A model generated the notes under the pieces. That model was not told the DNA's origin. It did no database searches and saw only the letters and a program-made list of their open reading frames with translations. From an uncultured Verrucomicrobiae bacterium (lineage in GTDB: Bacteria; Verrucomicrobiota; Verrucomicrobiia; Limisphaerales; UBA11358), in NCBI GenBank assembly GCA_963804345.1, contig CAWDPX010000017.1, positions 30,673 through 94,672 of the forward strand: a stretch of DNA of 64,000 bases, given 5' to 3'. Position numbers and translations under genes: made by a program. How positions within the stretch are numbered: the first letter of the stretch is position 1; each line of letters opens with the position of its first letter. Positions 13,432 to 57,181 of the stretch are shown piece by piece.

Positions 13432-14505
13432 ATGAACAACAATCGCAGAGCTTGGACGACGCCGGTGATCGGCTCGCTTGTGTTGGCCACGGCGGCGTCC
13501 GCTGAACAGGATTGGCAAACCAATTCCATTTCCACCAACCGCCTCTCGCTTTCGTTGCGGTTCGGGCTTAACATCTCCGGCAAATTCACAGGGGTCGGCA
13601 GATCATTCAGTTCCGGCGACCCCTTGTCCGCCGGCCGCCATACTCCGAACGGCGACGCCTACAATTACGACAACGGTTACGTGCTTACTGACAACAGCGG
13701 CAACTATGGCGGCCAGTCTTGGTATTGGGGCTACGACAACGCCAGTCAGGTCAATGCCGGCGCCAACACCATCGCTTTCAACCATACCCTGGCCACCGGT
13801 TTGCCCTCGGAAAATTCCGGTGACGATTCGCCCTACGTTGGGGCCGAGTTGACCTATGATTACGAACTCGGCGTGAAGGTGGATTGGCACCACCTGTGCT
13901 ACGGCCTCGAAGGCGCGGTCAACTTCCTGCCCGTTGAATTCAACAGCGGCGGTCGCTACAACGCCACGTTGTCGCAGCGCACCGACACCTACAGCTACAC
14001 GCCTGGCACCACGCCGCCGACCGCGCCGTATCAGGGCAGCTATGGCGGCCCCGGTTTTGTTATCAACGTCCCGCCGGTCAACTCCACTACCGCACTGGTT
14101 CCCGGCGCGACGTTTCTCGCGCAACAGCATTTCGATGCGAACCTCTGGGGTTTTCGTCTCGGACCTTACGTTGAGCTGCCGGTTTCCGAACGATTGGATT
14201 TATTCCTTACCGGCGGCCTTGCCGTGGGATTGCTCGACGGTGAAGCGTCCTGGAAGGAAACCCTTACGCTGCCCGGTGGTGCCGGTTCACTTACGGCCAG
14301 TGGTGGTGGCAGTGACACCTCTCTGCTCTGGGGCTATTATCTTGGGCTGAACGCCGCGTATCAATTCACCGAACGCTGGTGCGTGGAAGCTGGCGTGCAA
14401 TTCCAAAACCTCGGCACTTATAACCACAATTTCGGCGGCCGCGAGGCCGAATTGGATTTGAGCAAGTCCCTCTTCATCCACGCCGGCATCGGCTACAGCT
14501 TTTAA
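13432..14505 (+). CDS. Putative outer-membrane beta-barrel protein
   Basis: Signal peptide (ASA-EQ), alternating amphipathic strands and a terminal aromatic motif GIGYSF. Starts 23 bp after the giant gene. Confidence 0.75.
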   Translation: MNNNRRAWTTPVIGSLVLATAASAEQDWQTNSISTNRLSLSLRFGLNISGKFTGVGRSFSSGDPLSAGRHTPNGDAYNYDNGYVLTDNSGNYGGQSWYWGYDNASQVNAGANTIAFNHTLATGLPSENSGDDSPYVGAELTYDYELGVKVDWHHLCYGLEGAVNFLPVEFNSGGRYNATLSQRTDTYSYTPGTTPPTAPYQGSYGGPGFVINVPPVNSTTALVPGATFLAQQHFDANLWGFRLGPYVELPVSERLDLFLTGGLAVGLLDGEASWKETLTLPGGAGSLTASGGGSDTSLLWGYYLGLNAAYQFTERWCVEAGVQFQNLGTYNHNFGGREAELDLSKSLFIHAGIGYSF

Positions 14506-14743
14506 TGCTTATCGCGTGGTGATTGACCGTTTCTGGCATTGCTCGCGAGCGGCGGCGCCTTGCCCGCCGGTCACCCTGAAACTTCCAGGCGGGTGACGAA
14601 TACTTACATATCGTGATTGAGCTAATCCGGAATACACAAAAATTGAGTGATAACCGGGCAGGGTTCTGCCGGATGCGCCGGAATTTTTTGTCCGCACTCT
14701 GCGCTTGCTTCGTGCCAAAAAATCAGCGTCTATTGGACTCATA

Positions 14744-17575
14744 ATGAAACAGCCTGACAAGTTTGGTTGCGCGTGTGCGATTGGCCTGACGCTTCTTTTT
14801 TCGTCAATCATCTCCGTTCCCGCCGCCGATGACGCGCTCGCGTGGCCGCCCGTCACCGCCCAGACCAGGCCGTGGGCGTTCTGGTGGTGGATGGGCAGCG
14901 CGGTGGACAAAACGAACATCACGAAGGAACTCACCCGCTACTACGCCGCCGGTCTCGGCGGCGTCCACATCATCCCGATTTACGGCGCGAAGGGCTTTGA
15001 ATCGAACTACATCAGCTATCTCTCGCCAAAATGGATGGAGATGATGGGCTGGTCGGTCGCCGAGGCGAACCGGCTTGGCATGGGGGTGGACATGACGACC
15101 GGCACCGGCTGGTGTTTCGGCGGCCCGCAGGTTTCGGATCAGGATGCGAACGCCAGCGTCGTCGTGAAAACCTACGACCTTGGCGCGGGCGAAAGACTGA
15201 AAGAAAAATTCAACCGCAAATCCATCCAGGCGCTCGTCGCCTTCGGGCCGGACGGAAAATCCATTGACCTGACCGACTCCATTTCCACCAATGGCGAAGT
15301 GGATTTCTCGCCGCCGGGCGGCAAGTGGACAATCTACGCCATCTCGCAAAAACCCTCCGGACAGAAAGTAAAACGGCCCGCGCCCGGCGGCGAAGGCTGG
15401 ATGCTCAACCTGATTTATCCGCCGGCGATGGACGATTTTCTCAAGCCGTTCACCGCCGCGTTTGTCGGTTACACCGGCCCGAAACCGCGCGCCCAGTTCC
15501 AGGATTCCTACGAGTATCGTTCCGACTGGTCGCCCAATTTTTTTGCCGAGTTTGAAAAACGGCGCGGCTACAAATTGCAGACCGAACTGCCGGCACTGTT
15601 CGGCACGAACGCCGACGACCACGCCGCGCGCGTGAAATGCGACTACCGCCAGACCGTCTCCGAAATCATGGCCGAGGAATCGCTGCCCGCGTGGACGAAA
15701 TGGTCGCACGAACACGGCTTCATCACGCGCGACCAGGCGCACGGTTCGCCTGGCAACTGGCTCGACCTTTACGCCGCCGCCGACATCCCCGAAACGGAAA
15801 TGTTTCACACCGACCGCAACAAATTGATTTCCAAATTCGCGTCGTCCGCCGCGCACGTCACCGGCAAGCCGCTCGTCAGTTCCGAGACCGGCACCTGGCT
15901 GGCGGAACATTTCACCGAGAAGCTTTCCGACGTGAAATATCTCTTCGACGACATGTTTCTGTCCGGAATCAACCACATATTTTATCACGGCTGCTGCTAT
16001 TCGCCCGACGAGGCCGGCTGGCCCGGCTGGCATTTTTACGCCTCAACGGAAATGAACCCGCGCAACTCCATCTGGCGCGACGCCGACGCCGTCAACGCCT
16101 ACGCCGCGCGCTGCCAGTCCATTTTGCAATCCGGCCAGCCGGACAACGACATTTTGCTCTACTGGAACATTTCGGATTTCTGGATGCAGCCTGGCGACAA
16201 GCTGCTGCCGCACCTCACCGTCCACGCGCGCGACTGGTTCGAGGGCCAGCCCATCGGCAAAATGGCGCAACGACTTTGGAGTGAAGGGTTCGCTTTTGAC
16301 TACGTCTCCGATGCACAACTGAAAACAGCTAAAGTTGTTGACGGAAAAATCCAGATGCCCGGCGGAAATTACAAAGTTATTGTGGTGCCATGGTGTAAAT
16401 ACATGCCGTTTGAAACCTTCACAAATTTAGTAACCCTCGAAAAAATGGGAGCAACAATCATTGTTCAAAATCCAACATGCAATGCTTCGGGCTTAGATGA
16501 TTTCAAAGAGCGAACTGATGAAATGGTGAATCTTTGGACGGACGACCTCCGTTTGGATAATCTTCGATTTGGCGGCGGAAAATTAGGTGACACAAATGCC
16601 TTTGGTTTTGCATTCAACACAAACGGCGCTGGTAAGATTATTCTACCGGAAGGCACAGTTGCAGCGTATGGATATGCACTGAACTACGTTGGAGCAGTCC
16701 AGGAGGCGATGGTGGAAAGCGGTCTGTCCTTTGTCCGCCGTTCATTCGAAGGCGGCTGCAATTATTTCATCGCCAACCGCGCTGAAGCCAATTTCGACGG
16801 CTGGATTTCTCTCGCCCGTCCTGCCAAGTCCCTTGTCATTCTTGATCCAATGACCGGCAATTCCGGCGTAGCGGCGACTCGGCAGAGCGCCGCAAACTCA
16901 ACCGAAATTCATCTGCAACTTGCCGCTGGCGAGTCCGTGATTCTCCGCGCCTTTGCCGACAAAAAAGTAGAAGGCCCGGCTTGGAATTATTGGCAGCCCC
17001 AGACGCCAGACGCCAAACCCCAGACCCTGACCGGCCCGTGGAACGTGAAATTCATCCTCGGCGGCCCGACGCTGCCGGCGGATTTTCAAACCGCCAGGCT
17101 CGCCTCGTGGACGACGTTCCCCGACACGAACACGCAAGCCTTCGCCGGCACCGCGAAATACGAGACCACGTTTGATGCGCCTCGGAGGGACGAGTTACAC
17201 GAGTCCCCAAACCAAGAATCAAAGACAGGGACTCGCGGCGCTCGTCCCTCTGATAATTTTTATCTCGATCTCGGCGACGTGCGCCAGAGCGCGCGGGTGC
17301 GCGTGAACGGCAAGGATTACGGCACACTCATCACGCCGCCGTTCCGCGTGGTCGTTGACAATCTGAAGCCGGCCGGCAACCAGCTCGAAGTGGAAGTCAC
17401 CAGCGTCGCCGCCAACCGCATCCGCGACCTGGACCGGCGCGGCGTGCCGTGGAAAAATTTCCGCGACATCAACATTGTGGACATCAATTATAAACCCTTC
17501 GACGCCTCCAACTGGCCACTCACCGATTGCGGTTTGCTTGGGCCGGTGACATTGACGGCAGTAACGGCAAAATGA
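14744..17575 (+). CDS. Secreted glycoside hydrolase, GH106 (alpha-L-rhamnosidase-like)
   Basis: Motifs RPWAFWWWMG, AGLGGVHIIPIYG, GTGWCFGGP, DSYE, DIPETE and SSETGTW, with a C-terminal sugar-binding domain (LDLGDV..ARVRVNG..GLLGPV). Confidence 0.85.
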   Translation: MKQPDKFGCACAIGLTLLFSSIISVPAADDALAWPPVTAQTRPWAFWWWMGSAVDKTNITKELTRYYAAGLGGVHIIPIYGAKGFESNYISYLSPKWMEMMGWSVAEANRLGMGVDMTTGTGWCFGGPQVSDQDANASVVVKTYDLGAGERLKEKFNRKSIQALVAFGPDGKSIDLTDSISTNGEVDFSPPGGKWTIYAISQKPSGQKVKRPAPGGEGWMLNLIYPPAMDDFLKPFTAAFVGYTGPKPRAQFQDSYEYRSDWSPNFFAEFEKRRGYKLQTELPALFGTNADDHAARVKCDYRQTVSEIMAEESLPAWTKWSHEHGFITRDQAHGSPGNWLDLYAAADIPETEMFHTDRNKLISKFASSAAHVTGKPLVSSETGTWLAEHFTEKLSDVKYLFDDMFLSGINHIFYHGCCYSPDEAGWPGWHFYASTEMNPRNSIWRDADAVNAYAARCQSILQSGQPDNDILLYWNISDFWMQPGDKLLPHLTVHARDWFEGQPIGKMAQRLWSEGFAFDYVSDAQLKTAKVVDGKIQMPGGNYKVIVVPWCKYMPFETFTNLVTLEKMGATIIVQNPTCNASGLDDFKERTDEMVNLWTDDLRLDNLRFGGGKLGDTNAFGFAFNTNGAGKIILPEGTVAAYGYALNYVGAVQEAMVESGLSFVRRSFEGGCNYFIANRAEANFDGWISLARPAKSLVILDPMTGNSGVAATRQSAANSTEIHLQLAAGESVILRAFADKKVEGPAWNYWQPQTPDAKPQTLTGPWNVKFILGGPTLPADFQTARLASWTTFPDTNTQAFAGTAKYETTFDAPRRDELHESPNQESKTGTRGARPSDNFYLDLGDVRQSARVRVNGKDYGTLITPPFRVVVDNLKPAGNQLEVEVTSVAANRIRDLDRRGVPWKNFRDINIVDINYKPFDASNWPLTDCGLLGPVTLTAVTAK
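17183..17253. repeat. Palindromic element inserted in frame in the GH106 gene
   Basis: Inverted arms GAGGGACGAG..CGAGTCCC and GGGACTCG..CTCGTCCCTC, translated as RRDELHESPNQESKTGTRGARPS. Confidence 0.85.
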
Positions 17576-17576
17576 T

Positions 17577-17867
17577 GGAGATGTGCCCGTCCTCGGGCGC
17601 GGCAACCGGCTTCATTCAACCCGAATTTCGAAGCTGGCCTGAGCGTAGCGGCGACGCCTCGTCGCAGAAAGGTGCAGGCGACGCCCTCGTCGCCAGTTGC
17701 GGCGGCGATTATGCCGCTGCCGGGAAAAATGCGACGGGGGCGTCGCTATCACCCTGTGGCGACGAGGCGTCGCCGCTACTTTCGGCTGACCGCTTCGGAG
17801 TTCGGGTTCAACTGAACATTTTCCAATCGCCCGCCTCACTTGGCTGCGGCAGGGATGGCCGCACTCC
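17577..17867. repeat. Nested REP-like composite
   Basis: Inner perfect inverted repeat GTAGCGGCGACGCCTCGTCGC (17645) / GCGACGAGGCGTCGCCGCTAC (ends 17779), inside a degenerate outer GGAG..CTCC pair. Confidence 0.8.
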
Positions 17868-17953
17868 GCCAACGCAGAAATGCGAACGTTGGCTGACTGG
17901 GAGCCATAATCAGGCGCTTTTATTCGCAGCCAGCTTTGTCCGCCCCGAATTCG

Positions 17954-18352: not shown

Positions 18353-18409
18353 ATGTTCCTGTCGGTAGATGCCTCAGTTTGATTTGCCTCTTTTTACCAC
18401 CGTCTCATG

Positions 18410-18425
18410 CGCAATTGCAATGCCA
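18410..18425 (-). promoter_or_regulatory. Candidate sigma54 (-24/-12) promoter
   Basis: Minus strand TGGCAT-TGCAA-TTGCG, about 60 bp upstream of the lipoprotein start. Confidence 0.55.
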
Positions 18426-18461
18426 TTGGTTTTGGGCCGATGCAATGCGGGCGCAACCAGA

Positions 18462-19819: not shown

Positions 19820-21448
19820 CTATGGCTTGGCCGGAGCATTGGTGCCGGTGAGTTTTTGTTCGAGCGCGGCCAGTCTGGCCTCGACGGATGCCTTGCCGGG
19901 GTAATCGGGTGATTCCTGGAGAAGCTGTTTGTATTTTTCCAGGGCGTCGGCTTCGCGGTTCTGCGCCAGAAGTTTTTCGCCCAGCGTTAGCCGGATGCGA
20001 ATGCGCTGTTCCGGCGACGGGTTGCGGGTCAGGGCGAGTTGATACGTTTCAATGGCTGAAGACGGTTTGCCCTGCATTTCGTAAAGGTCGGCGAGTTTTT
20101 CGGTGAGCACGGCGCTACTGGTGGTTGCGGGAATGGTTTCGAGGAATGCGGCGAGCTGGGCCGCGGGCGTGCCGTGAACCAGACCCAAATCCACGATGCG
20201 CAGATAAGACCATTCGATCAGCGGGTTGTGGGTGCGCGCGAATTCCGCGTGCAGCGCCGACGGTTCCCGGCCAAAGGGCCGGTAAAGCGGGTCGCCGACG
20301 ACGGTGGTTTGCCAGGATAAAACGGGTTGCGCGGCCCAGGCGGCCTCGCCAAACGTGAATCCGCCGGCAATCAGCCGCGCGAGAAAGGCGTAAACATTGG
20401 GTGTGCAGGAGAGATACGGCTCGTTGACGCAGCCCATGGTGCAGGTCGCTCCTTTGGCAAGCAGCGGCCCGGCCCAAAACTGGTTCGTGCTCCGCAACGT
20501 GGACGCGCTGTAGGAATGCAGATGATACGCGAACGCGCCGGGCATGAATTCAACTTTGGGCAGCGTAAACGGGCCGCTGACGTATTCATCATACCAGCCG
20601 CAATAAATGGCGATCTGGCTCATCGGAAAATCGGCGGGAAACGTGGCGGGATTTTTGTCCACGGTTGTTTCAAAACCCAGTTGGCGGCAGATTTCTGCCG
20701 CTCCCAGGATCCATTCGTCGCCCAAAATATAATTGGTGTCGGTTTGGGGCAGTCCGCGCGCGTCGAAGTAGGCGCGGCCCCACAAGCCGTCGCGTTCGGC
20801 GGCGAGCGCCTTGTCCACCAGACCGCGCGCAATCTCCACACTGGGGCCGTCGAGCCGGGCCACCAGCAAAATGCCGTTGGTGGGATGGAGCAGCGCCGGG
20901 TTGGTGACGCCATAAACCCAGTTGGGCAGCGGTCCGGAAAGCGGGACGTTCATTTTCACCAGCGGCAGCCAGGCCAGCTCGGAATCCACCGCCGCTTCAT
21001 TGCGCAACATTTCCGGACGGGCGTTTTCCCGGCCCGGTTCGTGCAAATTCGGGTCGGCGGCAATCTTCAGCGGAACGCCCCAGCACAGGACAGCGTAGCG
21101 GATTTTGGATTCAACGACCGGGTGGTCCACGCGTGGGGGCTGGCCGTTGGTCGCGGCGTTGGTCACGGAACCAAACCGCCAGAGCTTGTCCACCAAGAGC
21201 CGGCTGGCCAGCGGATATTGCAGCCCGTCGCGAAACTCGGCGCGCGTCATCTCCTCGGTGATGGGCAGATCAAACCCGTAAATTTGCGTCTCCGGCACCT
21301 GCCGCATTCGGGCGTAATGCTCCGCCACCACTTTCGACCCGGCCAGGCGGGTGTTGTAAATCACGACCACCTCGTCGCCGCCGGCATGGACCAGCCACGG
21401 CGCGAACGCAAGGAGAAGAACTGTAAATTTAATCCCCAATATTTTCAT
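19820..21448 (-). CDS. TIGR03790-like exported protein with a C-terminal TPR
   Basis: Signal peptide and motifs VVVIYN, GVPLKI, AAVDSEL, LVARLDG, FMPGAFAYHLHS, GCVNEPYL and VVGDPLYRPF. Confidence 0.85.
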   Translation of the reverse strand: MKILGIKFTVLLLAFAPWLVHAGGDEVVVIYNTRLAGSKVVAEHYARMRQVPETQIYGFDLPITEEMTRAEFRDGLQYPLASRLLVDKLWRFGSVTNAATNGQPPRVDHPVVESKIRYAVLCWGVPLKIAADPNLHEPGRENARPEMLRNEAAVDSELAWLPLVKMNVPLSGPLPNWVYGVTNPALLHPTNGILLVARLDGPSVEIARGLVDKALAAERDGLWGRAYFDARGLPQTDTNYILGDEWILGAAEICRQLGFETTVDKNPATFPADFPMSQIAIYCGWYDEYVSGPFTLPKVEFMPGAFAYHLHSYSASTLRSTNQFWAGPLLAKGATCTMGCVNEPYLSCTPNVYAFLARLIAGGFTFGEAAWAAQPVLSWQTTVVGDPLYRPFGREPSALHAEFARTHNPLIEWSYLRIVDLGLVHGTPAAQLAAFLETIPATTSSAVLTEKLADLYEMQGKPSSAIETYQLALTRNPSPEQRIRIRLTLGEKLLAQNREADALEKYKQLLQESPDYPGKASVEARLAALEQKLTGTNAPAKP

Positions 21449-25360: not shown

Positions 25361-25374
25361 TCGCTCGAACAACT

Positions 25375-26804: not shown

Positions 26805-29363
26805 TCACCGCGCTGTTGGGGCTGGCTCATGATAGGTTTTGCCGGCCCGGTAGAGCTCAAGCAGTTGCCGGCTTTTCTCGGCCAGTTTTTTAGATCCGGC
26901 TGAGATTGCGAGCTGCTCCGCCTTTTCCGCCATCGTCACCGCGTCCGGAAAACGGCCCGCTTCGGCATAAGCGGCGGCCAGCGTCCTGATGAACAAGGGT
27001 TCGCCATAATGGGTCAGCTCGCACGCGCGTTCGGCCAAACGGACCGCCTCGGCCCCATTGCGAAGCTCGGCATCGGGATTGACGGCCAGCACCCACGCCA
27101 GGTTGTTCTGCGCCTCGGCGTAATTCGGACTGATCTGGATGGCCTTGCGAAAGTTCCCAATCGCTTCCTCAAACCGGCCCTTGTCGGCGAGGGCGGCCCC
27201 CAGGTTGTTCTGCGCCGCGACGAAATTCGGATTGATCTGGATGGCCTTGCGAAAGTTCCCGATCGCTTCCTCAAGCCGGTCCTCGGTGGCGAGGGCGGCC
27301 CCCAGGTTGTTCTGTGCCGCGGCGAAATTCGGATTGATCTGGATGGCCTTGCGATAGTTCTCAATTGCTTCCTCAAGCCGGCCTTGGGCGGCGAGGGCAT
27401 GGCCCAGGTTGTTCAGCGCTTCGGCGAAATTCGGATTGATCTGGACGGCCTTGCGAAAGTTCTCAATCGCTTCCTCCAACCGGCCCTTGTCGGCGAGGGC
27501 ATGGCCCAGGTTGTTCAGCGCCACGGCGAAATTCGGATTGACCTGGATGGCCTTGCGAAAGTTCCCAATCGCTTCCTCCAGCCGGCCCTTGTCGGCAAGG
27601 GCGATGCCCAGATTGTTCAGCGCCACGGCGAAATTCGGATTGATCTGGATGGCCTTGCGATAGTTCTCAATTGCTTCATCAAGCCGGCCTTGGGCGGCGA
27701 GGACATGGCCCAGGTTGTTTTGCGCTTCAGCGAAATTCGGATTGATCTGGATGGCCTGGTAATAATTCTCAATCGCTTCCTCCAACCGGCCCTTGGCGGC
27801 GAGGGCATGGCCCAGGTTGTTCAACGCTTCGGCGAAATTCGGATTGATCCGGATGGCCTTGCGAAAGTTCTCAATCGCTTCATCCATTTGGCCCTTGTCG
27901 GCGAGGGCGGCCCCCAGAGTGTCCATCACTTCGGGGGAATTCGGATTGCTCTGGAAGGCCCGATGGTAGTGTTCCATTGCCTCTTTAATGCGTCCCTGGT
28001 TCCGGAGCAAATTACCCAGATTGTTGTGGGCCAGCCAGCAATCCGGGTTCCCGGCCAGCGTCGCCCGCCAGAGGGTTTCCATGTCCGTGTACATTCCGGC
28101 CTGCCGCCAGGTCAGGAGGGCGAGCACCGGCAGCACAATGGCGGCAAATCCATAAACCACCGCCAGCCTGCGCCAGGATTCGGCCACCCGTACCACCAGC
28201 GCCGCCACCAGTGCGATGATCCCGAGCGCGGACAGATAAACCCAGTGATCCCACGCAAATGAATAACGCATGCCATACGCGTTCATGAATCCCAGCACCG
28301 GAAACAAGGTTCCCACATAAAAGAACAGCGCCGTCGCCGGCCCACGCCCAAGGCGCCCCCGGGCCAGCCAGAGCGTGAAAAGGGCGCCGATGGCGGTTAC
28401 CGGATAAAGCCATTGCCACCCCGAACCGGGTTCAGGCTGCCAGCGCGGGTAAACGAAGCAAAGCTTCGCCGGCCAAAACAGGTTGCCGAGGTAAAACCAG
28501 AACGCCCGCCCGGCAACCAGGCAGCGTTGCGGGAATGTCAGGTCAAAGTCCGGCCCTTCCGCACCGAGATGGTATTTCTCCAACCAGGCGGTTACGGCAC
28601 AAAGACCCAGGGCCAGGGCGAAGAAGGGCAGGGTTGGCAACACGTCCGCCCGCCACCGGATTTGTCCGCGTTGCCACCAACCGATCAACAGAATGGCCGC
28701 CGGCAACGAAAAGGTCGTCGTCTTGGCCAGCAACGCACAAAGAAACAAAACGAAAGCCAGTCCGTAAAAAAGTGACACTTGGCACGTGCCGCGTGACGGG
28801 TCAGGCACAGAAGTGACTTTTTGCGGTCCTGTCACCTGCCGCCTGCCACTTGCCACACCCTTCGCGTAGCGCAGGTAAGCCAGCCAGGCGCCGAGGTAAA
28901 AAACAAGCGAAAGAACATTTTTACGTTCGGTGATCCAGGCGACGGATTCAACCATGACCGGATGCAGCGCGAAGAGGGCACCGGCCAGCCAGGCGCCGGG
29001 CACCTGGAGCCGGAGCAACAACCGCCAGAAGAGCAGCGCGGCCAGCGCGTGCAGCAGGACGTTCTCCACGTGATAGGGGGTAGTCCAGAATTTCCAAAGT
29101 TGATAATCCAGCCAGAACGTCGTCCCCGAGAGCGGATAATACTGTTGCAGGGCGGTGGGCTGGAACCAGATCAAGCGCAGGCCGGAAGGGTCGCGTAACA
29201 AGCCGATTATATTCGTGGTCCACGAGTCGTCGTCCCAGACGAAACCGCCGCGCAGGGCGGGGAAATAGGCCAGGAAGACCAGGAGAACGATCAGGGCGCC
29301 CTGCCAAATCGGCAGCGTTCGTCCACGAATCAACATTCGCCCGGGGAAGGTCTTTTGTGGCAC
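26805..29363 (-). CDS. TMTC-like membrane glycosyltransferase (GT-C) with a TPR array
   Basis: GGFVWDD, YYPL, YH..NVLLH and HPVMVESVAWITERK, multiple TM segments, then near-identical 102-bp TPR repeats (about 27100-27900). Confidence 0.8.
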   Translation of the reverse strand: MPQKTFPGRMLIRGRTLPIWQGALIVLLVFLAYFPALRGGFVWDDDSWTTNIIGLLRDPSGLRLIWFQPTALQQYYPLSGTTFWLDYQLWKFWTTPYHVENVLLHALAALLFWRLLLRLQVPGAWLAGALFALHPVMVESVAWITERKNVLSLVFYLGAWLAYLRYAKGVASGRRQVTGPQKVTSVPDPSRGTCQVSLFYGLAFVLFLCALLAKTTTFSLPAAILLIGWWQRGQIRWRADVLPTLPFFALALGLCAVTAWLEKYHLGAEGPDFDLTFPQRCLVAGRAFWFYLGNLFWPAKLCFVYPRWQPEPGSGWQWLYPVTAIGALFTLWLARGRLGRGPATALFFYVGTLFPVLGFMNAYGMRYSFAWDHWVYLSALGIIALVAALVVRVAESWRRLAVVYGFAAIVLPVLALLTWRQAGMYTDMETLWRATLAGNPDCWLAHNNLGNLLRNQGRIKEAMEHYHRAFQSNPNSPEVMDTLGAALADKGQMDEAIENFRKAIRINPNFAEALNNLGHALAAKGRLEEAIENYYQAIQINPNFAEAQNNLGHVLAAQGRLDEAIENYRKAIQINPNFAVALNNLGIALADKGRLEEAIGNFRKAIQVNPNFAVALNNLGHALADKGRLEEAIENFRKAVQINPNFAEALNNLGHALAAQGRLEEAIENYRKAIQINPNFAAAQNNLGAALATEDRLEEAIGNFRKAIQINPNFVAAQNNLGAALADKGRFEEAIGNFRKAIQISPNYAEAQNNLAWVLAVNPDAELRNGAEAVRLAERACELTHYGEPLFIRTLAAAYAEAGRFPDAVTMAEKAEQLAISAGSKKLAEKSRQLLELYRAGKTYHEPAPTAR

Positions 29364-29450: not shown

Positions 29451-31286
29451 ATGAAACATCCGGCAGCCCTGCTGTTTTTGATACTGGCCGCGCTGTTGCC
29501 GACAGCGCGCGCGCAGCAGGGGCCTGACGACCAATACATCGTCATTTACAGCCTGATGCAGCAGGCGGATGCGTTGGACAGCTCCGGACAATCGCGCCAG
29601 GCGCTGGCCCAATACGTCCAAGTGCAGGGCGAACTGCAAAAATTTCGGAATATTTACCCGGATTGGAGCCCGAGAATTGTCAACTTCCGCTTGAATTATC
29701 TCGCGGAAAAAATCGCCGAAGTGACGGCGAAACTTCCCGTGACCCCGCAAAACGGGACGCCGCCCCAGTCGCCGCCGCCGGGCGCGGCGTCAACCTCCGC
29801 CGCCGATTTGGAGGCGCAGTTCGGCGCGCTGCATGAACAGGTGCAAAAACTACAGGTGGACAACACGACGCTTCAAGCCAAGCTCCAGGAGGCGCTGGCG
29901 GCGCAACCGGCGGCCATTGATGCGCGCGAACTGACCCAGGCACGGGCGCAAATCCGGTCGTTGATGAAGGAAAACGATTTGCTCAAGGTCAGCCTGTCGC
30001 AGGGAAAAGCCGGAACGGCGATGGGGCCGGCGGTCGCGGCATCGGACGCCTTGAAACTGGCGCAACTGGCCCTGGCCGAAGCGAATCAAAAATTAACCGC
30101 GCAAACGGCGCGCGCCGACACACTGGCCCGGGAAAATCAGGCGTTGCAATCGCGCGTCCAGGCGTTGCTGGCCAGTCCCGATACGATTCAGGCGCTGCGC
30201 GAGGAAAATGCGCTGCTCAAAAAACAGATTGCCGATTTCAAACCGGCGGCGCCGGATCCGGCGGAAGCCGCCCGGCTGAACGCGGAACTGGCCGGGCTGC
30301 GGAAACAGATTGCCGAGTTGCAGTCGGCTTCCGCAGTCGTTTTTTTGGAAAAATCAGCCCTGGAAAATCGCGTGCGGCAATTGCAGATCGCGGCGGTGAA
30401 TTCCGCGCCGGTCCCGGCGCCCAACCAGGCGGAAAACGAGGAGCGCATCCGGACGTTGACGCAGGAGCGCAACGATTTGCTCGCCAAACTGGGCGAGGCG
30501 AACCGGGAGCTTTACGGTCGCCGGAAACAGGACGCCGCGGCGCGTATCAACGTGTTGACCGATGAGGTGAACGCCCTGCGCGCGCGGCTGGCGGTGGATG
30601 AAGCGCCGGTCATCCCTTACACGCCGGAGGAACTGGCCTTGTTCAAGCAACCTGCGCCGCAACTGGCCAGTCGCAACGCGGAGAAAAAATCCATCAAGGA
30701 GCTGCCCGGCGGCGCGGCCGAACTGGTGGCCGAGGCGCAACATTATTTTTCCTCCGGGCAATACGACAAGGCGGAGGATGATTATCAGAAAATTTTGCAG
30801 CATGATGAAAACAACGGATTGGTGCTGGCCAACCTGGCGACGATTGAGATGGAGCAGGGCCGGCTCGACGATGCGGAAAAACACATCAAAGCCGCCGTAG
30901 CTCAAAGTCCGGACGACCCCTACAACCTGGCAACGCTGGGCCGCCTTGAATTTCTCCGCGAAAAATACGACGACGCGCTTGACGCCTTGGGCCGCGCGGC
31001 CAAGCTCGATCCCCGAAATCCGGAAATTGAAAATTATCTCGGCGTCACGCTCGGTCACAAGGGCCTGCGCGCGCAGGCGGAAACGGCGTTGCGCAAGGCG
31101 ATTCAACTCGACCCCAATTACGGCCCGGCGCACAACAATCTGGCGGTGATTTACATCAGCCAGGTGCCGCCCCAGGTGGAACTGGCGCGCTGGCATTATC
31201 AAAAGGCGCTCGACGCCGGCCAGCCGCGCAATCCGAACCTGGAGCAGATGCTGGACGCGAAAGGCGCGCCGGCGAACCCGCAATGA
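29451..31286 (+). CDS. Exported coiled-coil + TPR protein
   Basis: Signal peptide ARA-QQ, a long helical region and C-terminal TPRs. Confidence 0.85.
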   Translation: MKHPAALLFLILAALLPTARAQQGPDDQYIVIYSLMQQADALDSSGQSRQALAQYVQVQGELQKFRNIYPDWSPRIVNFRLNYLAEKIAEVTAKLPVTPQNGTPPQSPPPGAASTSAADLEAQFGALHEQVQKLQVDNTTLQAKLQEALAAQPAAIDARELTQARAQIRSLMKENDLLKVSLSQGKAGTAMGPAVAASDALKLAQLALAEANQKLTAQTARADTLARENQALQSRVQALLASPDTIQALREENALLKKQIADFKPAAPDPAEAARLNAELAGLRKQIAELQSASAVVFLEKSALENRVRQLQIAAVNSAPVPAPNQAENEERIRTLTQERNDLLAKLGEANRELYGRRKQDAAARINVLTDEVNALRARLAVDEAPVIPYTPEELALFKQPAPQLASRNAEKKSIKELPGGAAELVAEAQHYFSSGQYDKAEDDYQKILQHDENNGLVLANLATIEMEQGRLDDAEKHIKAAVAQSPDDPYNLATLGRLEFLREKYDDALDALGRAAKLDPRNPEIENYLGVTLGHKGLRAQAETALRKAIQLDPNYGPAHNNLAVIYISQVPPQVELARWHYQKALDAGQPRNPNLEQMLDAKGAPANPQ

Positions 31287-31824: not shown

Positions 31825-31894
31825 GGTGGGGCGAGCGTCCTCGCGAGCCGTAACAAATTTCAACGATGCGGCTCGCCGGGAGTCTCGCCCCACC
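31825..31894. repeat. REP-like doublet
   Basis: GGTGGGGCGAG..CGAGCCG / CGGCTCG..CTCGCCCCACC. Confidence 0.8.
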
Positions 31895-31957
31895 ACGCCG
31901 AACCATTGTCGAATAAACTGGCCAAGCGCGCCGTCGAATGGCAGGTTGCGGATGTTT

Positions 31958-34285
31958 ATGCAAACCATGAAATGGTCTCGCTCCAGTGTTTTGTCGGCGT
32001 TGGTTTTTGTTTTTGCCTTCGCCGGGCACGGCGAAAATGTCACGAACAGTTTCGGTTTCACCGGCCCGGAAATTTTCCCGATTGACGTTCAAATCAACCT
32101 CCTGCACGCGGCGGATTTGGACGGCGACGGCCTGAACGACCTCATCGTCGCCAACAATCTGCGCTCCAAAATCAATTTGCTTTACAATCAAACGGGCAAA
32201 ACTAATCAAGTGGCCGCGGCCGGCCAGCCGCGCAAACTCGAAATCAATGAACTCCCGCCCGGCGCGCGTTTCCGCATTGATTCCATCCCCACCGACGAGC
32301 GCTTGGGCGCGATGGTGGTGGCCGACCTCAACGGCGACGGCCGACCCGACATCGCCTTTTACGGCGACGCGAAGGATCTCGAGGTGATTTACAACGAAGG
32401 CACGAATGGCTGGAGCGAGCCGAAACACTGGCACATCGTGGACGGACAGTTGAACCCGAATGCGCTGACGCCCGGCGATTTGAACGGGGATGGCCGGACC
32501 GACCTCGTTTTGCTCGGCGACAACGGCTCGCTGTATTTCCTGCCGCAATTGGCGGACCACACGCTCGGCGAGCCGCAAAAAATTCCGTGCTCGGGCACGC
32601 CCAAATCCGTGCAAATCGTGGACGTGGACGGCGATGGCCGGAACGATTTGCTGCTCGTGGACTGGGACAGCCCGACACCGCTGCGGTTCCGGCTGCAAAA
32701 CGCCGCTGGCCAGCTCGGGCCGGAAATCTATTTCAAGACCCCGCCCATCCGCTCGTTTTGCGCGGACACCCTCGAAGGTGGCGCCAAAAATTACATCGTG
32801 ACCATCGCGCGGGATTCCGGCCGCGCGTCGGTTTCGCAATTCACGCGCCAGCCCGCCGAAATCTTGTCCGGCGCGTTCCGGCGCGGACAATTTCAAATTC
32901 TGCCGCTGAACAAGACGGACGCGGCGCAACGCGGCCTGCTTTGGGCCGATGTCAACGGCGACGGCCGTCCCGATTTGCTCGTGGCCGAGCCGGCCAGCGG
33001 CCAGCTTTCGGTTTATTTCCAGCAGCCGGACGGTTCGCTTGCCCCGCCCAAGACCTTTCCCACCCTGGCGGGCGTGAGCCAGCTCGCGGCGGCGGACTGG
33101 AACGGCGACGGCCATCCGGACATTTTTCTCCTGAGCCGCGACGAAAACGCGGTCGGCGTGACGCAATTTGATAAAAACGGACGGCTGCCGTTTCCAACGC
33201 TCATACCGCTCGACGGCAAACCGCTCGTGATGGCCGTCGGTGCCTTGAAGCCCGGCGCCAAGCCGTCGCTGTGCGTGATAGTGGACAAGGACGGCCGGCG
33301 TTCGCTGGTCACGCGCCTGGCGGACGGCAAGATGCGGACGCAAACGCTCAGCGAGAATTTTAAATCCAATCCCACGGCACTTGCCATCCAGGACGTGAAC
33401 CAGGACGGACGGGCGGATTTGGTCGCGCTGATTCCGTATGAAAAAATCAAGGTGCTGCTGCAAAAATCCGGCGGGGATTTCGATGAGGTGGACGTGGACC
33501 CGCCCGGCGGCCCGATTGAGCAGCCGTGGCTGGCGTCGGCGGACGTGGACGGCGACGGCAAACCGGAGTTGTTGCTGCCGCAGAAAAATTTCGTGCGCGC
33601 CGTCGTGCTCGAACAGGAAGTCAAAACCCCGGGTTCCACCAACCAGCCGGACTGGGTTTTTCGCGTGAAGGACCAGATCAACGGCGCGGCGGGCGATTCG
33701 CGGATTGCCGGCGCCACGGTGGTGCGGAACGGCACGAACAACGTGCCGGCGATTTTCCTGCTCGATGCGGAGCACAAACAGTTGACGTTGTGCGAACGCG
33801 ATGCGGCGGGGGTGTGGCGGGTGTCCCGCAACGTGGAACTGCCGGTGTCGGATTTCACCGGTTTGCAGTCGGTTGCGCTCGGTGGCACGAATATCCAGAG
33901 CGTGGCGTTTCTCGGCCAGAACGCCGTCGCGTGGATGCCCCTGGCGGGCGAGGTTTGGGAATTGACCGCGCTCGATGGCTATGACACGCCGATCAAGGAC
34001 GGGTATTTGAATGACGTGGTGGCGGGCGATTTGAGCGGCACCGGGCGCAAGGATCTGGTGTTTTTGGAAACGGCAAAAAATTATCTCGACCTCGTCAGCT
34101 TTGATTCACATCACAAGCTCGTTCCTTCCAATCGCTGGCAGGTGTTCGAGCAGCACACCTTCCGCGGACGCACCGACGCCCTGCCCGAGCCGCGCGAGGC
34201 GCTCGTGACCGATGTCACCGGCGACAAAAAGAACGATCTGGTCGTCGTGGTGCATGACCGCATCCTGGTTTATCCGCAGGAATGA
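31958..34285 (+). CDS. Exported FG-GAP/VCBS repeat protein
   Basis: Many D[LV][DN]GDGR.D[LI] motifs. A signal peptide follows the corrected start, since the longer ORF start lies in a repeat. Confidence 0.88.
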   Translation: MQTMKWSRSSVLSALVFVFAFAGHGENVTNSFGFTGPEIFPIDVQINLLHAADLDGDGLNDLIVANNLRSKINLLYNQTGKTNQVAAAGQPRKLEINELPPGARFRIDSIPTDERLGAMVVADLNGDGRPDIAFYGDAKDLEVIYNEGTNGWSEPKHWHIVDGQLNPNALTPGDLNGDGRTDLVLLGDNGSLYFLPQLADHTLGEPQKIPCSGTPKSVQIVDVDGDGRNDLLLVDWDSPTPLRFRLQNAAGQLGPEIYFKTPPIRSFCADTLEGGAKNYIVTIARDSGRASVSQFTRQPAEILSGAFRRGQFQILPLNKTDAAQRGLLWADVNGDGRPDLLVAEPASGQLSVYFQQPDGSLAPPKTFPTLAGVSQLAAADWNGDGHPDIFLLSRDENAVGVTQFDKNGRLPFPTLIPLDGKPLVMAVGALKPGAKPSLCVIVDKDGRRSLVTRLADGKMRTQTLSENFKSNPTALAIQDVNQDGRADLVALIPYEKIKVLLQKSGGDFDEVDVDPPGGPIEQPWLASADVDGDGKPELLLPQKNFVRAVVLEQEVKTPGSTNQPDWVFRVKDQINGAAGDSRIAGATVVRNGTNNVPAIFLLDAEHKQLTLCERDAAGVWRVSRNVELPVSDFTGLQSVALGGTNIQSVAFLGQNAVAWMPLAGEVWELTALDGYDTPIKDGYLNDVVAGDLSGTGRKDLVFLETAKNYLDLVSFDSHHKLVPSNRWQVFEQHTFRGRTDALPEPREALVTDVTGDKKNDLVVVVHDRILVYPQE

Positions 34286-36874: not shown

Positions 36875-37852
36875 TCATTGCGCCGCCGGCTGGTTTTTGG
36901 TGCGGCCGGGCGGTTCGAGATAGTGATACGGATTGTTCGGATTGTCGGTGGAGTAGGCGAAGGCATCGCGGTGTTCCAGAAAGTTTTTCACCAGTTCGAC
37001 GGGAATCGCAAAACCCAGGCCCTCGCCAAAGGTGATTTTCATGTTCGTTACGCCGACGACTTCACCCCCGAGATTGAACAGGGGGCCGCCGCTGTTGCCG
37101 GGGTTGATCTGCGCGGTAGTTTGCAGGTAAAGCTCGCCCTCGAGCTGCCGGGTTTTGGTGCTGACAATCCCCGAGGTCACGGTGCGTTCCAATCCCATCG
37201 GACTGCCGATGGCAAACACGGTATCGCCGACGCTTAACACGTCCGAGTTGCCGAGGGTGACGTATTTGAACTTGGGCGCGTTCTTGTCCTCAATTTTCAG
37301 CAGCGCCAGGTCGTGAAATTTGTTGATGGCGATGATCTTCACCTGCTTGTAGGTCTCGCGGTCAAGCTGGCCGTTGTGCTGATGATACACTTCAACGGAA
37401 ATTTCCGTCTCGCCCTCGATGACGTGAAAATTCGTGATCAGATAACCGTCCGCGTTGATGAAAAATCCCGAACCCAGGCCGCCGGGCGTGCGGACCTGCA
37501 CGACCGCCTCGCCGATCTGCTTGACGAGGTCCTGCACATCGCGGGCGGCGGCGGGGCGGTTGTCCGAATAAAAAAATTGCGGAATGGCGTTGACGCTGAC
37601 GACCGGGTTGGATGCGGCTGGCGTTGGCGTTGGCGCGGCGTTGTCGGACTTGGAAATGCCGGCGATGACGTTACGCGGCACGACAAGCACGGTATAGCCA
37701 ACATCCACGACGATGGAATCAGGTCTTTCAGCAAGGATTTTGCCGGTAACGGCGGCCTGATCCTTCAATTGAATCACGTCGGCGCCCGCGGGGCGCAGAC
37801 CGCAGAAAAGCAGAACTGCCAATGTAATGGTAATATGTTTCTTCAACAACAT
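36875..37852 (-). CDS. S1C (HtrA-like) serine protease without PDZ
   Basis: GSGF, ITNFHVI, DLALLKI and INPGNSGGPL, plus a signal peptide. Confidence 0.9.
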   Translation of the reverse strand: MLLKKHITITLAVLLFCGLRPAGADVIQLKDQAAVTGKILAERPDSIVVDVGYTVLVVPRNVIAGISKSDNAAPTPTPAASNPVVSVNAIPQFFYSDNRPAAARDVQDLVKQIGEAVVQVRTPGGLGSGFFINADGYLITNFHVIEGETEISVEVYHQHNGQLDRETYKQVKIIAINKFHDLALLKIEDKNAPKFKYVTLGNSDVLSVGDTVFAIGSPMGLERTVTSGIVSTKTRQLEGELYLQTTAQINPGNSGGPLFNLGGEVVGVTNMKITFGEGLGFAIPVELVKNFLEHRDAFAYSTDNPNNPYHYLEPPGRTKNQPAAQ

Positions 37853-44896: not shown

Positions 44897-45274
44897 TCAT
44901 ACGTTTTCCTTGGCAAAAGTGATGGCGACGGAGGCAACATGGGTTTTCAACATGGCTGCGAAACGCCGGTTCGCCCGCTGGACAAATTTCAGCTCATGTT
45001 TCTGGATGGCCCGGTCTATGGATTTGAGTCCGCTGCCCAGCACTGTGACCTCGGCCACGGCAAAATGGATCAACAACTGTTGTGGTGAAGTGTGGGGTTT
45101 TTTTTCCAGCGCAGGATTGGCGCACAGCTTGGAATACAGAAATTGTGCATAAGGCAGTTGAAAGCTTTCCTCATCGTCCGCAATCGCGTTCAACGTTGCC
45201 ACGGTGGCGTCGATGCCGTAACAGGGATTGTCACGCGAGCTAGACGGCGATTCGGTGAGTGGATTGGTGTTCAT
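44897..45274 (-). CDS. Hypothetical protein coupled to the relaxase
   Basis: 125-aa ORF overlapping the relaxase 3' end. Confidence 0.65.
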   Translation of the reverse strand: MNTNPLTESPSSSRDNPCYGIDATVATLNAIADDEESFQLPYAQFLYSKLCANPALEKKPHTSPQQLLIHFAVAEVTVLGSGLKSIDRAIQKHELKFVQRANRRFAAMLKTHVASVAITFAKENV

Positions 45275-47963: not shown

Positions 47964-48486
47964 AAACCGCAGTATTATTTGTTTCCCAAAAAGCTTTGTT
48001 CGCTTTCCGATCACCTTTTAATCCCATTTATTGCTGTCATTCTGACGGAAGCCGTGACAGCGGCGGTGTATCACCAGCACCGCTTGCATTGTTGCTCTAC
48101 AATGGCTCTCCTTTCTCATCTGCAATTGGAGAGTCTACCGGAAAAGGCCGTCGGTTTTGTGTCAATTAGACACAAAATGAAGTGTCCGTTTTGCGGATAA
48201 ACCCCTGGGAAACCCTGACTAATGGCAATTTTTAGGTGATGCATTCTTACCATAAAGGCAATGACCATGACCTTGACCGAGAAACATGAGACGGTTTTCC
48301 CGCTGGACTGGTGCCGCCGGGAAGGGTTGGAGCGCCACGATCCGTTGAATGTATTTCGACCTGGGCAAGGATGGCTTGTTGATCCGCCCGGTGAAAGCAC
48401 CCGGAAAACGGGCCGTGGCTGGAAAGTTTGCGAACTTCGGCCTTGTCGGTTGCTTCAAAGTCCTGATTGCGGTATGTTTTGCTTCA

Positions 48487-52350: not shown

Positions 52351-52373
52351 GATTTTCCTTTTGGTTTGACTGG

Positions 52374-53138: not shown

Positions 53139-53204
53139 CACAGCGAAAATCTTTCCACAAAAGCGTGGCTGGCGCAAATGCAATACCAGCCGTCCGCCTC
53201 GATC

Positions 53205-53687
53205 TTACCAGGGTGTTTTGCGTTCAAAGCGTGCGTCAGCGACGACCGGTTTATCCGGCACCGTATCCAGCCAGCCACAGCGTTGCACCGGATAATTGTC
53301 GTATTGCGGAACGTAAGGCTTGATGTCGAGCAGAGGTGTGCCGTCCAGAATGTCCACCTCGGCCAGACGAAGGATGCAGCCTTCAATGTTTAACAACCGC
53401 ACGCATGAAATTCCGAGCGCATTTGGGCGGGCTGGAGCGCGCGTGGCAAACAGGCCGTGTTCCACCGTGTCGCGGTAAGGCACCACGCTCATCTTGGCAA
53501 CCGCCGCCCGGTGAAACCAATAAATCAACCAAATGCGGTCGAAGTCGGCCAAGTCTTCCTATCCAGCGACAAATTCCGGAAGCAAGGTGACGTATCCGGG
53601 CGAATCACCGGCCCGACACGGTTGGATCGGTGTGCCGGTCGCCTGCTTGAACGCAGAGTGAACGACTCCGATTGGGATCAGGTTCAT
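53205..53687 (-). pseudogene. tsaA: TrmO/TsaA family SAM-binding protein interrupted by an in-frame TAG (53559-53561)
   Basis: MNLIPIGVVHS..GTPIQP..EFVAG*EDLADFDRIWLIYWFH..GLFATRAPARPN..LDGTPLLDIKPY, all in one frame. Confidence 0.85.
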
Positions 53688-53743
53688 GGATGGAGAAGGG
53701 TGAACTGTTTTTAACATAATTCTATTTCCAATCATTTTCGCAT

Positions 53744-55168: not shown

Positions 55169-55177
55169 GTCCAGCCT

Positions 55178-56056
55178 TTAAGCGCGCCGGTTCCGGCGCC
55201 GCACGCACAGCAACAGCAACCCACCGGCAATCATGGTCGCCGTCGCCGGTTCCGGCACCACGGCGATGTCAAAGGACAGGGTTGGCGAATACAGCGCCGG
55301 GTTGCTGCCGCTGCTGTAACTGTGCGAGGTGAAATTGAAGGCTACGTGATTGTCGGCAGGGGTGAGCAGCAACGAAATCGAATCGCCGGACATCAAGGCG
55401 GACAAAAAGTCGGCGTTGGCTGTGCTGACTGAATACGTTGCGGGCACCAGCGTTCCTTGCGCCACGTACGAACAGGTGTTGAGCAGCGTGGCGGGTGTGG
55501 CGCTCAACGTGGATTGGAGGCTGTTGTAAGTGATGCCGGTGTAGGAAGCAGGCGACTGGCTGCCCGTGCCTTGAATCCAGTCGCCATCGTTGAACAGCCA
55601 ACTGACGTTGAAGCTCCCGCTGGTGCCGGGACTGTTGAACATGGAATTGCCGACGGTGCTGGAGGTGTTCAAGGTCAAGGACAGGGATGAAATGCTCCAG
55701 TCGCCAACGCCGTATTCTGAGTTCAGCGTGGCCACCGTGGAGGAGAAATCAAACCGCAGGACCGAGTCGAATTCGCCTTTGGAGGGATTGGCGGGGTAGT
55801 TGCCAGGATGCGCCGAGGGCGAGGCGATGGAACGCGAGTTCATGCCGCCAAAATTTTGGCTGGCGGCGTTTGGATAACTGCTGTTGCCCGGGCCGGGATT
55901 CAGCACAAAGGAGTCGTCCGTGTCATAAACGGAAACGGAGGGTTGCGCCTGAACGGCAACATTCCAGAGCGCGGTGCAAACGGCCGCCAGGGCCAGTGCG
56001 GGTTTATAATGGTTGATGAGTTTCATTTTGAGGGTTTGTTTCATGTTGTTTTTCAT
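55178..56056 (-). CDS. PEP-CTERM exosortase-target protein
   Basis: Own signal peptide (VQA-QP) and ends VPEP + TM helix + RRRNRR. Its ATG overlaps the upstream TGA (ATGA). Confidence 0.88.
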   Translation of the reverse strand: MKNNMKQTLKMKLINHYKPALALAAVCTALWNVAVQAQPSVSVYDTDDSFVLNPGPGNSSYPNAASQNFGGMNSRSIASPSAHPGNYPANPSKGEFDSVLRFDFSSTVATLNSEYGVGDWSISSLSLTLNTSSTVGNSMFNSPGTSGSFNVSWLFNDGDWIQGTGSQSPASYTGITYNSLQSTLSATPATLLNTCSYVAQGTLVPATYSVSTANADFLSALMSGDSISLLLTPADNHVAFNFTSHSYSSGSNPALYSPTLSFDIAVVPEPATATMIAGGLLLLCVRRRNRRA

Positions 56057-57181
56057 TTGAGGATGCGTATTCGCAAAAAGCGGCTGGTGGCGGCGGGCAC
56101 TGGTACGAGGTCGCGCACGGTCACATTTTTGAGACCCTGCCGTGACCGAAACGGTTTCACTGACCAGTCCCGGTCCGCTCATAGGCATGCCGTTGGTGCC
56201 AGCGGCCACGAGTGTCCACTGGCTTTGGGTCAAAGCGGCGGCGGCCTCCACGAGGTAAGTCAGGTTGGTGACCCCGGCGAGGCGTTGAAAACTCAAGTTT
56301 AAATACTGGGTGCCGTTCAAAAGTCTGATTTGTGCCACCGGCGGCGGCAGCGGCGAGGCGGTGACAAAAATCGTCGCCGAATACTCATTCGTGCCCCGGT
56401 CGTCGCCGTATTGGTGCGAAGTGAAATTAAAGGCGACCTGATCATCCGCCGCGTTAAACAACAGCGTGGTGGGCTGCGTGTTGATGAGCGCCGCCAGGAA
56501 TGACAGGTTCGTTGTCGTCAGGGAATTGGTCACGGGAATGAGCGTTCCCTGCTTCACAAAATTCAGCGTGTTCAGCACCACCGCCGGATTGGTGCTCAAA
56601 ATGGATTGCAGGCCGTTGTAGGTCAGGTTGGTGAAATTATCCGGACTTGCGACCGGATCGTGCGAGCTGCTTCCCTGATTGATGTAACCGTTGCCTTGAA
56701 CCCAGCCGCCATCGTTGGGCATCCAGCAGACATTGAATTGGCCGGCAGTGCCTGGTGCATTGAACATTCCGGGACCGGCCACGTTGTCGGAGGTCGTTAG
56801 TTTCAGCGCCAGCCCGGTGATGCGCCAGCAACCCACGCCGTATTGCGCGTCGAGTTGCGCGACGGCGTTGGACGGATAAAACCGGGCCACCACGTCAAAC
56901 TCGCCCATGCTTGGATTGGCGGGATTGCCTCCCGGATGCGCTGTGGCCGCCGCAACGTGCCGCGAGCGCATATAACCGAAATTGCGTTCGGCTCCATCCC
57001 AGTAGCTGGCCATGTTGCCCGGCCCCGGTGACATTACAAAAGTGTCATCGGTCGCATAAATTGGCGCGGTGGTTTGTGCGACGACCGGCAGAGTCAGGAG
57101 CGTCAATAGCCCGCCCAAGACTGCCGCCAACCACTGCGGTTTTGACTTCGTTCGCACGTGCTGAGTTGATTTCGTAGTCAT
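56053..57181 (-). CDS. Exported paralog of the PEP-CTERM protein with a different C-terminal domain; a 1-bp frameshift near 56126-56137 fuses it to the next gene
   Basis: Removing one base gives ..NVTVRDLVPVPAATSRFLRIRILK* ending at 56053. The N-terminal domain is clearly homologous to the downstream protein. Confidence 0.8.

Follow-up and report, generated by a model that had tools for sequence, protein, structure and literature searches.

The stretch analysed here (the window) comprises 64,000 nucleotides of the genome of an uncultured Verrucomicrobiae bacterium of the order Limisphaerales (G000:C17:30673-94672), and it raises the question of why its exported proteins so often carry the dipeptide Thr-Asn (TN). 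The initial annotation took TN as a candidate glycosylation motif, specific to the lineage, used on one class of exported proteins and avoided in the substrates of exosortase. Genome-wide counting confirmed that the TN excess is real and stronger than could be seen in that first inspection. Concerning its meaning, we consider the chances about even that TN serves as a sequon for a lineage-specific extracytoplasmic modification, which would most likely be glycosylation.

Excess, compartment and context of Thr-Asn

The genome (4.64 Mb in 29 contigs, 57.6% G+C, 88.9% complete) was annotated with a custom gene caller, which took open reading frames (ORFs) of at least 80 codons, scored them by iteratively trained codon-usage log-odds and then picked non-overlapping ones greedily, leading to 3400 genes that cover 83% of G000. 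The expected number of TN was calculated for each protein as nT x nN / L from its Thr count, Asn count and length, so that every observed/expected ratio (O/E) given below is composition-corrected protein by protein. The signal-peptide class holds 856 proteins, each shorter than 1500 aa, and the cytoplasmic class 1857 proteins with neither a signal peptide nor a membrane segment.

TN is the most over-represented of the 400 dipeptides in the whole genome (5549 vs 3347 expected, O/E 1.66, z 38), with SG as the runner-up (z 18), and it occurs twice as often as the reversed dipeptide NT (2769). Specifically, signal-peptide proteins contain 2605 TN vs 1309 expected (O/E 1.99) and 1108 NT (O/E 0.85), so that the predominance of TN over NT proposed at first outlasts composition correction. 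TN outnumbers NT in 439 of these proteins, is outnumbered in 126 and equals it in 291, while Thr, at a frequency of 7.0%, precedes 15.2% of all Asn. One hundred within-protein shuffles of the same class gave a mean of 1306.5 (sd 37.3) and a maximum of 1439, against 2606 observed; shuffling inside 20-residue blocks still left an O/E of 1.90, and the 600 signal-peptide proteins without paralogues gave 1.93. Equal enrichment in the cytoplasm would have spoken against a role in the envelope, but the cytoplasmic class reaches an O/E of only 1.13 (1189 vs 1049) and many of its TN-richest members resemble missed exported proteins. Cytoplasmic orthologues conserved in distant relatives (123 pairs) show no excess at all (66 vs 67.9, O/E 0.97).

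The excess extends over several exported classes. It was found in 58 lipobox proteins (164 vs 79.5, O/E 2.06), in 15 signal-peptide proteins with CxxCH, i.e., periplasmic haem c proteins (54 vs 20.6, O/E 2.62), and in the predicted outside loops of 219 membrane proteins (201 vs 109.9, O/E 1.83), the inside loops of the same proteins being lower (107 vs 82.7, O/E 1.29). The 36 prepilin-type proteins reach an O/E of 1.41 (51 vs 36.3), and the 41 proteins with a barrel-like C-terminus are only weakly enriched (142 vs 105.4, O/E 1.35). The proposal of a single export class was thus correct as to the extracytoplasmic location and too narrow otherwise, as lipoproteins, haem c proteins and outside loops all carry the excess.

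The signal is confined to one dipeptide. Among signal-peptide proteins, SN stands at 0.82, TD at 0.94 and TQ at 0.67, and all other XN or TX dipeptides lie between 0.67 and 1.10. Non-adjacent Thr and Asn, T-x(k)-N with k = 1-5, give an O/E of 0.96-1.05 (T-x-N 1.01), so only direct adjacency counts. All eight Thr-Asn codon pairs are in use and the choice of Asn codon follows the background, which places the signal at the level of the peptide; a bias for a DNA word was rejected on the same grounds. Relative to the remaining Asn in these proteins, the second residue after the Asn (N+2) of TN sites is enriched 1.5-1.6-fold in Pro, Val and Phe and depleted in Arg (0.22), Lys (0.28) and His (0.46), Pro is disfavoured at N+1 (0.48), and Thr or Ser is preferred two residues ahead of the Thr. 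The context can be written as T-N-x-(P/V/F/I), or as T-N-x-(P/V/F/I/T) when Thr is included at the last position, with a strong exclusion of Arg and Lys at N+2, and its flanks favour beta-branched and hydrophobic residues and Pro. For instance, TNAP occurs 47 times vs 15.2 expected, while TNAR (12.7 expected) and TNSE (7.3 expected) are both absent. The classical N-X-S/T sequon was also considered and rejected, as it is found at 407 of 2595 TN Asn (15.7%) vs 2045 of 14485 other Asn (14.1%). Successive TN sites in the signal-peptide proteins seldom lie closer together than 5 residues, while a distance of exactly 7 is unusually frequent (61 cases vs 28-53 for neighbouring spacings).

Window proteins and exosortase substrates

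The exported and membrane proteins of the window that were considered are as follows.

35..13408, plus strand: giant surface protein with DUF11, Big_9 and cadherin-like repeats; TN 127, expected 61.5, NT 43
13432..14505, plus strand: 357-aa exported protein with a barrel-like C-terminus (...GIGYSF); TN 2, expected 1.8, NT 1
14705..17575, plus strand: exported GH106 alpha-L-rhamnosidase (PF17132, 1.2e-61); TN 7, expected 3.0, NT 2
19820..21448, minus strand: exported TIGR03790-family protein with a C-terminal TPR region; 7 TN among 19 Asn, expected 1.2, NT 1
26805..29363, minus strand: GT-C-like/TPR membrane protein with about 8 N-terminal hydrophobic segments and C-terminal TPR repeats
29451..31286, plus strand: exported TPR protein; TN 0, expected 1.1, NT 1
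31826..34285, plus strand: exported FG-GAP repeat protein; TN 6 after the signal peptide, expected 2.1, NT 0
36875..37852, minus strand: exported trypsin-like peptidase; TN 2, expected 1.3, NT 0
55178..56056, minus strand: module 2 of a 667-codon ORF, with its own signal peptide and a PEP-CTERM tail; TN 0, expected 1.97
about 56057..57181, minus strand: module 1 of the same ORF, with a signal peptide and a domain of no known family; TN 7, expected 3.06, NT 3
57200..58204, minus strand: prepilin-type N-terminal methylation protein; TN 0, expected 1.0, NT 3

Recounting reproduced the numbers first given by hand for the TIGR03790-family and FG-GAP proteins. Repeated TN had also been claimed for the GH106, beta-barrel and giant proteins, and this holds for the rhamnosidase and the giant protein, while the barrel-like protein is near its expectation. 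Its search against Pfam and NCBIfam gave no match. The TIGR03790 assignment scores 310.1 bits against an NCBIfam cut-off of 67. Control proteins of the window are as poor in TN as had been stated (RecN 1, PyrH 0, EF-Ts 1, relaxase 1), to which a 431-aa protein at 62480-63775 with one TN can be added, and the exported TPR protein at 29451 indeed lacks the dipeptide. The ORF of the giant protein extends upstream beyond the window to 5127 aa in contig C17, and it is one of five proteins longer than 3000 aa in the genome. The relaxase is of the TrwC type with a helicase domain (45240-48014, minus strand, PF08751, 1.2e-80) and tentatively points to an integrated conjugative element in this central part of the window.

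The two modules at 55178-57181 gave rise to the idea of avoidance. They had been described as adjacent paralogues with 7 and 0 TN, and both the counts and the four aligned site pairs quoted are correct. The modules, however, are two paralogous genes, each with a signal peptide, that read through as a single ORF of 667 codons, no in-frame stop separating them; loss of the stop codon, an error in the sequence or a genuine fusion could each account for this. They are 47% identical over 267 aa; the ORF had no match in five genomes of the same genus and no further paralogue in G000. Module 1 has no PEP-CTERM tail of its own. Module 2 ends in a PEP motif, a hydrophobic helix and a basic cluster (...VVPEPATATMIAGGLLLLCVRRRNRRA), and its PF07589 match scored 24.1 bits, above the cut-off, in one search and 19.8 bits, below the cut-off of 20.7, in another.

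A Pfam PEP-CTERM search identified 15 tails in the genome, that of module 2 included. Ten called PEP-CTERM genes, leaving out the window ORF, have 3 TN vs 14.9 expected (NT 15), and four PEP-CTERM ORFs that were missed by the caller have 3, 0, 0 and 0 vs 1.03, 1.74, 0.58 and 1.35, so that the 14 proteins, summed by hand, contain 6 TN vs 19.6 expected. Seven proteins defined as PEP-CTERM by a regular expression in the sampled TN-positive relatives described below have 1 TN vs 11.4 expected (NT 12). The contrast between the two window paralogues therefore holds for the whole class, and the suggested avoidance of TN in exosortase substrates is borne out. As these proteins fall below the neutral expectation, TN is selected against in them, and it must therefore have a consequence in the envelope. 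What is new with respect to known PEP-CTERM sorting is that the substrates are 3- to 10-fold below the expected TN while other exported proteins are twofold above it; no earlier report of such a shortfall was found in a literature search.

Distribution among relatives and history of the sites

A set of 76 loci around TIGR03790 orthologues comes nearly entirely from metagenome-assembled genomes (MAGs) named Limisphaerales, Verrucomicrobiia or Verrucomicrobia subdivision 3, and most of the related records belong to peat, bog or soil metagenome projects. Signal-peptide proteins encoded at 73 such loci show an O/E of 1.81-2.53 across four identity bands, although these loci are syntenic and hence not independent samples. 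Orthologues 60-78% identical to the TIGR03790 gene were also present in public MAG records under the names Bifidobacteriaceae, Pseudomonadales, Sulfopaludibacter, Limnocylindrales, Acidiferrales, Acidoferrum or Methylomirabilota (loci L112, L114, L129, L132, L136, L142, L146, L150, L156, L159, and L160), and these taxonomic labels appear to be mistaken.

Individual genomes were also compared. From each of 23 relatives, 49-277 kb were sampled, and genes were called as longest ORFs by a simpler caller and classified by the same rules as in G000. The O/E of TN in signal-peptide proteins was as follows.

G011, same genus: 2.27
G008, same genus: 2.20
G003, same genus: 1.59 (111 vs 70.0)
G012, same genus: 1.40 (8 sites only)
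G014, other family of the order: 2.12
G016, other family of the order: 1.87
G017, other family of the order: 2.66
G013, other family of the order: 0.83
G015, other family of the order: 0.97
G019, other family of the order: 0.59
G020, other family of the order: 1.11
G018, other family of the order: 1.56, with NT at 1.41, counted as neither positive nor negative
G080, G074, G065, G068, G044, G021 and G025, other orders of the class: 0.74-1.17
G043, another class of the phylum: 0.94
E. coli K-12, outgroup, 100 kb: 0.79

The excess is present in four of the nine Limisphaerales families sampled and is missing from the seven genomes of other orders, the one genome of another class and the 100 kb of E. 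coli, in agreement with the lineage specificity that had been proposed. TN was the top dipeptide in both pooled TN-positive sets (2.09 and 1.87), vs 0.88 and 0.93 in the pooled TN-negative sets. No dipeptide stood out in the latter as an alternative motif, the top ones being NG (1.62) and DG. The exported proteins of G018 (loci L184-L190) have TN and NT both raised, a symmetric pattern unlike the TN-only signal seen elsewhere. A tree of rpsB+tsf(+pyrH), which has few characters and is midpoint-rooted, places the positive G017 beside the negative G015 (support 0.90) and groups G019 with G020, both of them negative, suggesting that the trait has changed at least twice.

The sites themselves seem to be mostly young. 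Across 26 pairs of exported orthologues with TN-negative genomes, the G000 members have 46 TN (33.7 expected) and their partners 24 (27.0 expected), with only 3 sites common to both. The Thr is conserved at 9 of the 46 TN sites vs 283 of 658 other Thr (p 0.0017), a difference not found in cytoplasmic proteins, and this low conservation indicates that most sites arose recently at variable positions.

The TIGR03790 family offers a closer look at one protein. Its 70 orthologues have a mean of 5.9 TN and 1.3 NT per protein, 1.3 being expected; TN appears in 32 columns of their alignment, and in four of these the majority of sequences show it. The orthologues of TN-positive genomes contain 4-9 TN, but those of TN-negative genomes have 0, 3, and 5, so that the contrast is only partly clean. 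Many invariant Cys, His, Asp and Glu in the alignment of the family (A1) suggest that the protein is an enzyme. The motifs G-x-T-N-x-A at 182 and P-T-N-G at 190 are kept across most of the order (loci L250-L259).

Recognition of the motif and alternative explanations

Effect size, restriction to a single dipeptide, sequence context, compartment, patchy lineage distribution and avoidance in PEP-CTERM proteins together form the pattern that is expected of a positively selected sequon. From these observations we infer an enzyme as the recogniser and a glycan as the modification, with one of the two residues, Thr or Asn, carrying it. Some envelope component of this Limisphaerales lineage would recognise T-N-x-(P/V/F/I/T), and the most likely recogniser would be the transferase of a general glycosylation system that acts after Sec export. 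Many such sites may have arisen at variable positions in proteins of the periplasm and the cell surface, in lipoproteins and in secreted proteins, and then been maintained. The selection against TN in PEP-CTERM/exosortase substrates, and its far lower excess in outer-membrane barrels, would presumably stem from a modification that disturbs sorting or assembly there. A fuller version, which we hold more tentatively and as somewhat less probable than not, is that some Limisphaerales (Verrucomicrobia subdivision 3) may possess a general envelope glycosylation with the minimal sequon T-N-x-(hydrophobic/Pro), independent of the systems of Bacteroidota and of PglB. It would involve thousands of selected sites, a purge of TN from exosortase cargo, and to a lesser degree from barrels, as incompatible with sorting, and a transferase from a family not linked to protein glycosylation so far.

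Several points weigh against a modification sequon. A strict requirement for Thr, with Ser not accepted, is unusual among known bacterial O-glycosylation. The search for an enzyme that co-occurs with the TN trait gave no candidate among STT3, Wzy_C, PMT_2, the GT-C/TPR family and TIGR03790. STT3/PglB (PF02516) has no match in the 88.9% complete genome, while control genomes matched as expected, and Wzy_C and PMT_2 are present in all 21 relatives searched. When 34 PMT_2 loci from eight order-level genomes were compared with the GT-C proteins of G000, no orthogroup was confined to TN-positive genomes. TIGR03790 was tried as a gene tracking the trait and rejected, as it occurs in 20 of the 21 relatives, TN-negative ones included; a shared enzyme with altered specificity is possible. 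Of 211 TN sites compared within the genus, 46% are retained vs 31% predicted by the rates of the single residues, but as a conserved unit TN has a ratio (1.48) that does not exceed that of NT (1.67), which makes this retention a weak point. Two of the seven TN sites of the TIGR03790 protein, 182 and 190, are also conserved in TN-negative genomes and hence are features of the family rather than of the lineage, so that some TN sites are ordinary structural or functional residues. The AlphaFold model of this protein, built with 23 orthologues, is too poor to place its TN sites (mean pLDDT 61, residues 170-191 and 270-393 below 50). Finally, simple custom rules served to recognise signal peptides, membrane segments and PEP-CTERM tails, which makes the classes approximate (PyrH, for example, was wrongly flagged as exported), and the samples of the relatives are small (49-277 kb per genome). 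Impurity of the classes can only dilute the contrasts between them.

The alternative that survives best, although we regard it as unlikely, requires no enzyme. TN would help exported proteins to fold, stay soluble or remain stable under peat or bog conditions, e.g., at strand ends or turns, and PEP-CTERM proteins and barrels would have other structural needs. The beta-branched, hydrophobic and Pro-rich flanks are compatible with it, as are the richness of exported proteins in both residues (fT 0.070, fN 0.053), the origin of most related records from peat, bog and soil, and the old structural or functional residues found at some TN sites. Physical chemistry, however, leaves unexplained why Thr has to stand directly before Asn when S-N, T-D, N-T and T-x-N show no excess, why sister families of the same order do without it, and why TN-x-R/K is so strongly excluded. 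Moreover, a structural preference would leave PEP-CTERM proteins at 1.0 rather than at 0.2-0.3, below the neutral level.

Somewhat less probable still is the binding of TN-x-hydrophobic by a non-modifying factor of the envelope, such as a chaperone, a quality-control protease or a receptor for secretion or surface retention, from which exosortase substrates must escape. Compartment, lineage and avoidance fit this possibility equally well, and it agrees with the lack of a transferase tied to the trait. The proteins nevertheless carry several dispersed sites each, with a fast turnover (2571 sites counted over the 856 proteins), a pattern closer to that of modification sites than to that of a signal for sorting or docking, and we know of no chaperone motif of this kind.

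The candidate transferase of the initial annotation, the GT-C-like/TPR protein at 26805-29363 (TMTC-like in its terms), appears very doubtful in that role. Its architecture is suitable, with an N-terminal multi-pass domain that bears an FVWDDD loop motif, eight hydrophobic segments by a custom scan and nine TPR stretches at residues 430-800. Five of its homologous paralogues reach the Pfam PMT_2 cut-off, which makes the label "GT-C-like with TPR" reasonable. The window copy itself had no Pfam match at E up to 1 for its N-terminal 457 residues and no match to a PDB sequence for its N-terminal 430 residues. The family is expanded to 19 paralogues in G000 (26 matching stretches), and some other Verrucomicrobiota have 5-13 matches while many have none. 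There are 12 matches in the TN-positive G014, which belongs to another family of the order, but none was found with the window protein as query in the TN-positive G016 (96% complete) and G017 (82% complete), and the TN-negative G065, G068 and G080 have 11, 11 and 5, one of those in G068 being 54% identical. With a distribution so unlike that of the trait, the family is unsupported as the transferase. An artefact of composition, repeats and paralogues, gene calling or DNA words, to which custom calls and classes and the many TN of giant repeat proteins could contribute, can practically be dismissed, given NT of identical composition at 0.85, an excess that persists in block shuffles (1.90), in proteins below 1500 aa (1.99) and in those without paralogues (1.93), the use of all eight codon pairs, and values of about 1.0 from the same pipeline in 12 other genomes of the phylum and E. 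coli.

Returning to a modification sequon, the closest parallel is offered by the O-glycosylation of Bacteroidota at D-(S/T)-(A/I/L/V/M/T), which, in the excerpted text of the review PMC12871550, is the only known motif-driven bacterial O-glycosylation. Its motif marks non-cytoplasmic proteins and is enriched in the proteomes of that phylum, and its transferase is described there as undiscovered (PMC12871550, same excerpt). TN resembles this system in the brevity of its motif, in favouring hydrophobic residues downstream, in its restriction to non-cytoplasmic proteins, both periplasmic and membrane ones, in its enrichment by lineage and in lacking an identified transferase (PMC12871550, in part). 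It differs in the motif itself (T-N-x-hydrophobic/Pro with no Asp, Ser not being accepted, as SN stands at 0.82), and it belongs to a different phylum, is patchy within one order and is known here from sequences alone. The PglB/STT3 system of Campylobacterota (D/E-X-N-X-S/T) likewise uses an Asn-containing sequon on Sec-exported proteins in the periplasm; unlike it, the TN trait comes with no STT3 homologue in G000, N-X-S/T is not enriched, and Thr is at -1 instead of +2. Eukaryotic TMTC1-4 and PMT O-mannosyltransferases appear to share with the protein at 26805-29363 a GT-C-like membrane domain combined with TPR, and paralogues of the latter match PMT_2. TMTC and PMT enzymes combine a GT-C fold with TPR or MIR domains, and their targets are Ser/Thr residues in secretory proteins; no dipeptide sequon is known for them, and Ser is accepted. 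A corresponding role of the GT-C/TPR family in TN modification is at odds with a distribution that does not follow the trait.

A literature search of the full texts of articles found no report of a Thr-Asn motif or of protein glycosylation in Verrucomicrobia, and the excerpt of PMC12645811 mentions neither Verrucomicrobia nor Akkermansia. If a TN sequon is true, it would be a second, unrelated motif read from genomes, meaning that such systems can be discovered by proteome statistics alone. It predicts thousands of candidate sites, and the TN-positive and TN-negative sister families of one order constitute a clean comparative set for the discovery of the enzyme. Additionally, it would link a modification signal to exosortase sorting, itself poorly understood. 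For these organisms, of which chiefly MAGs from peat, bog and soil metagenomes are available, the modification would concern their secreted glycoside hydrolases and adhesins, on which TN is found.

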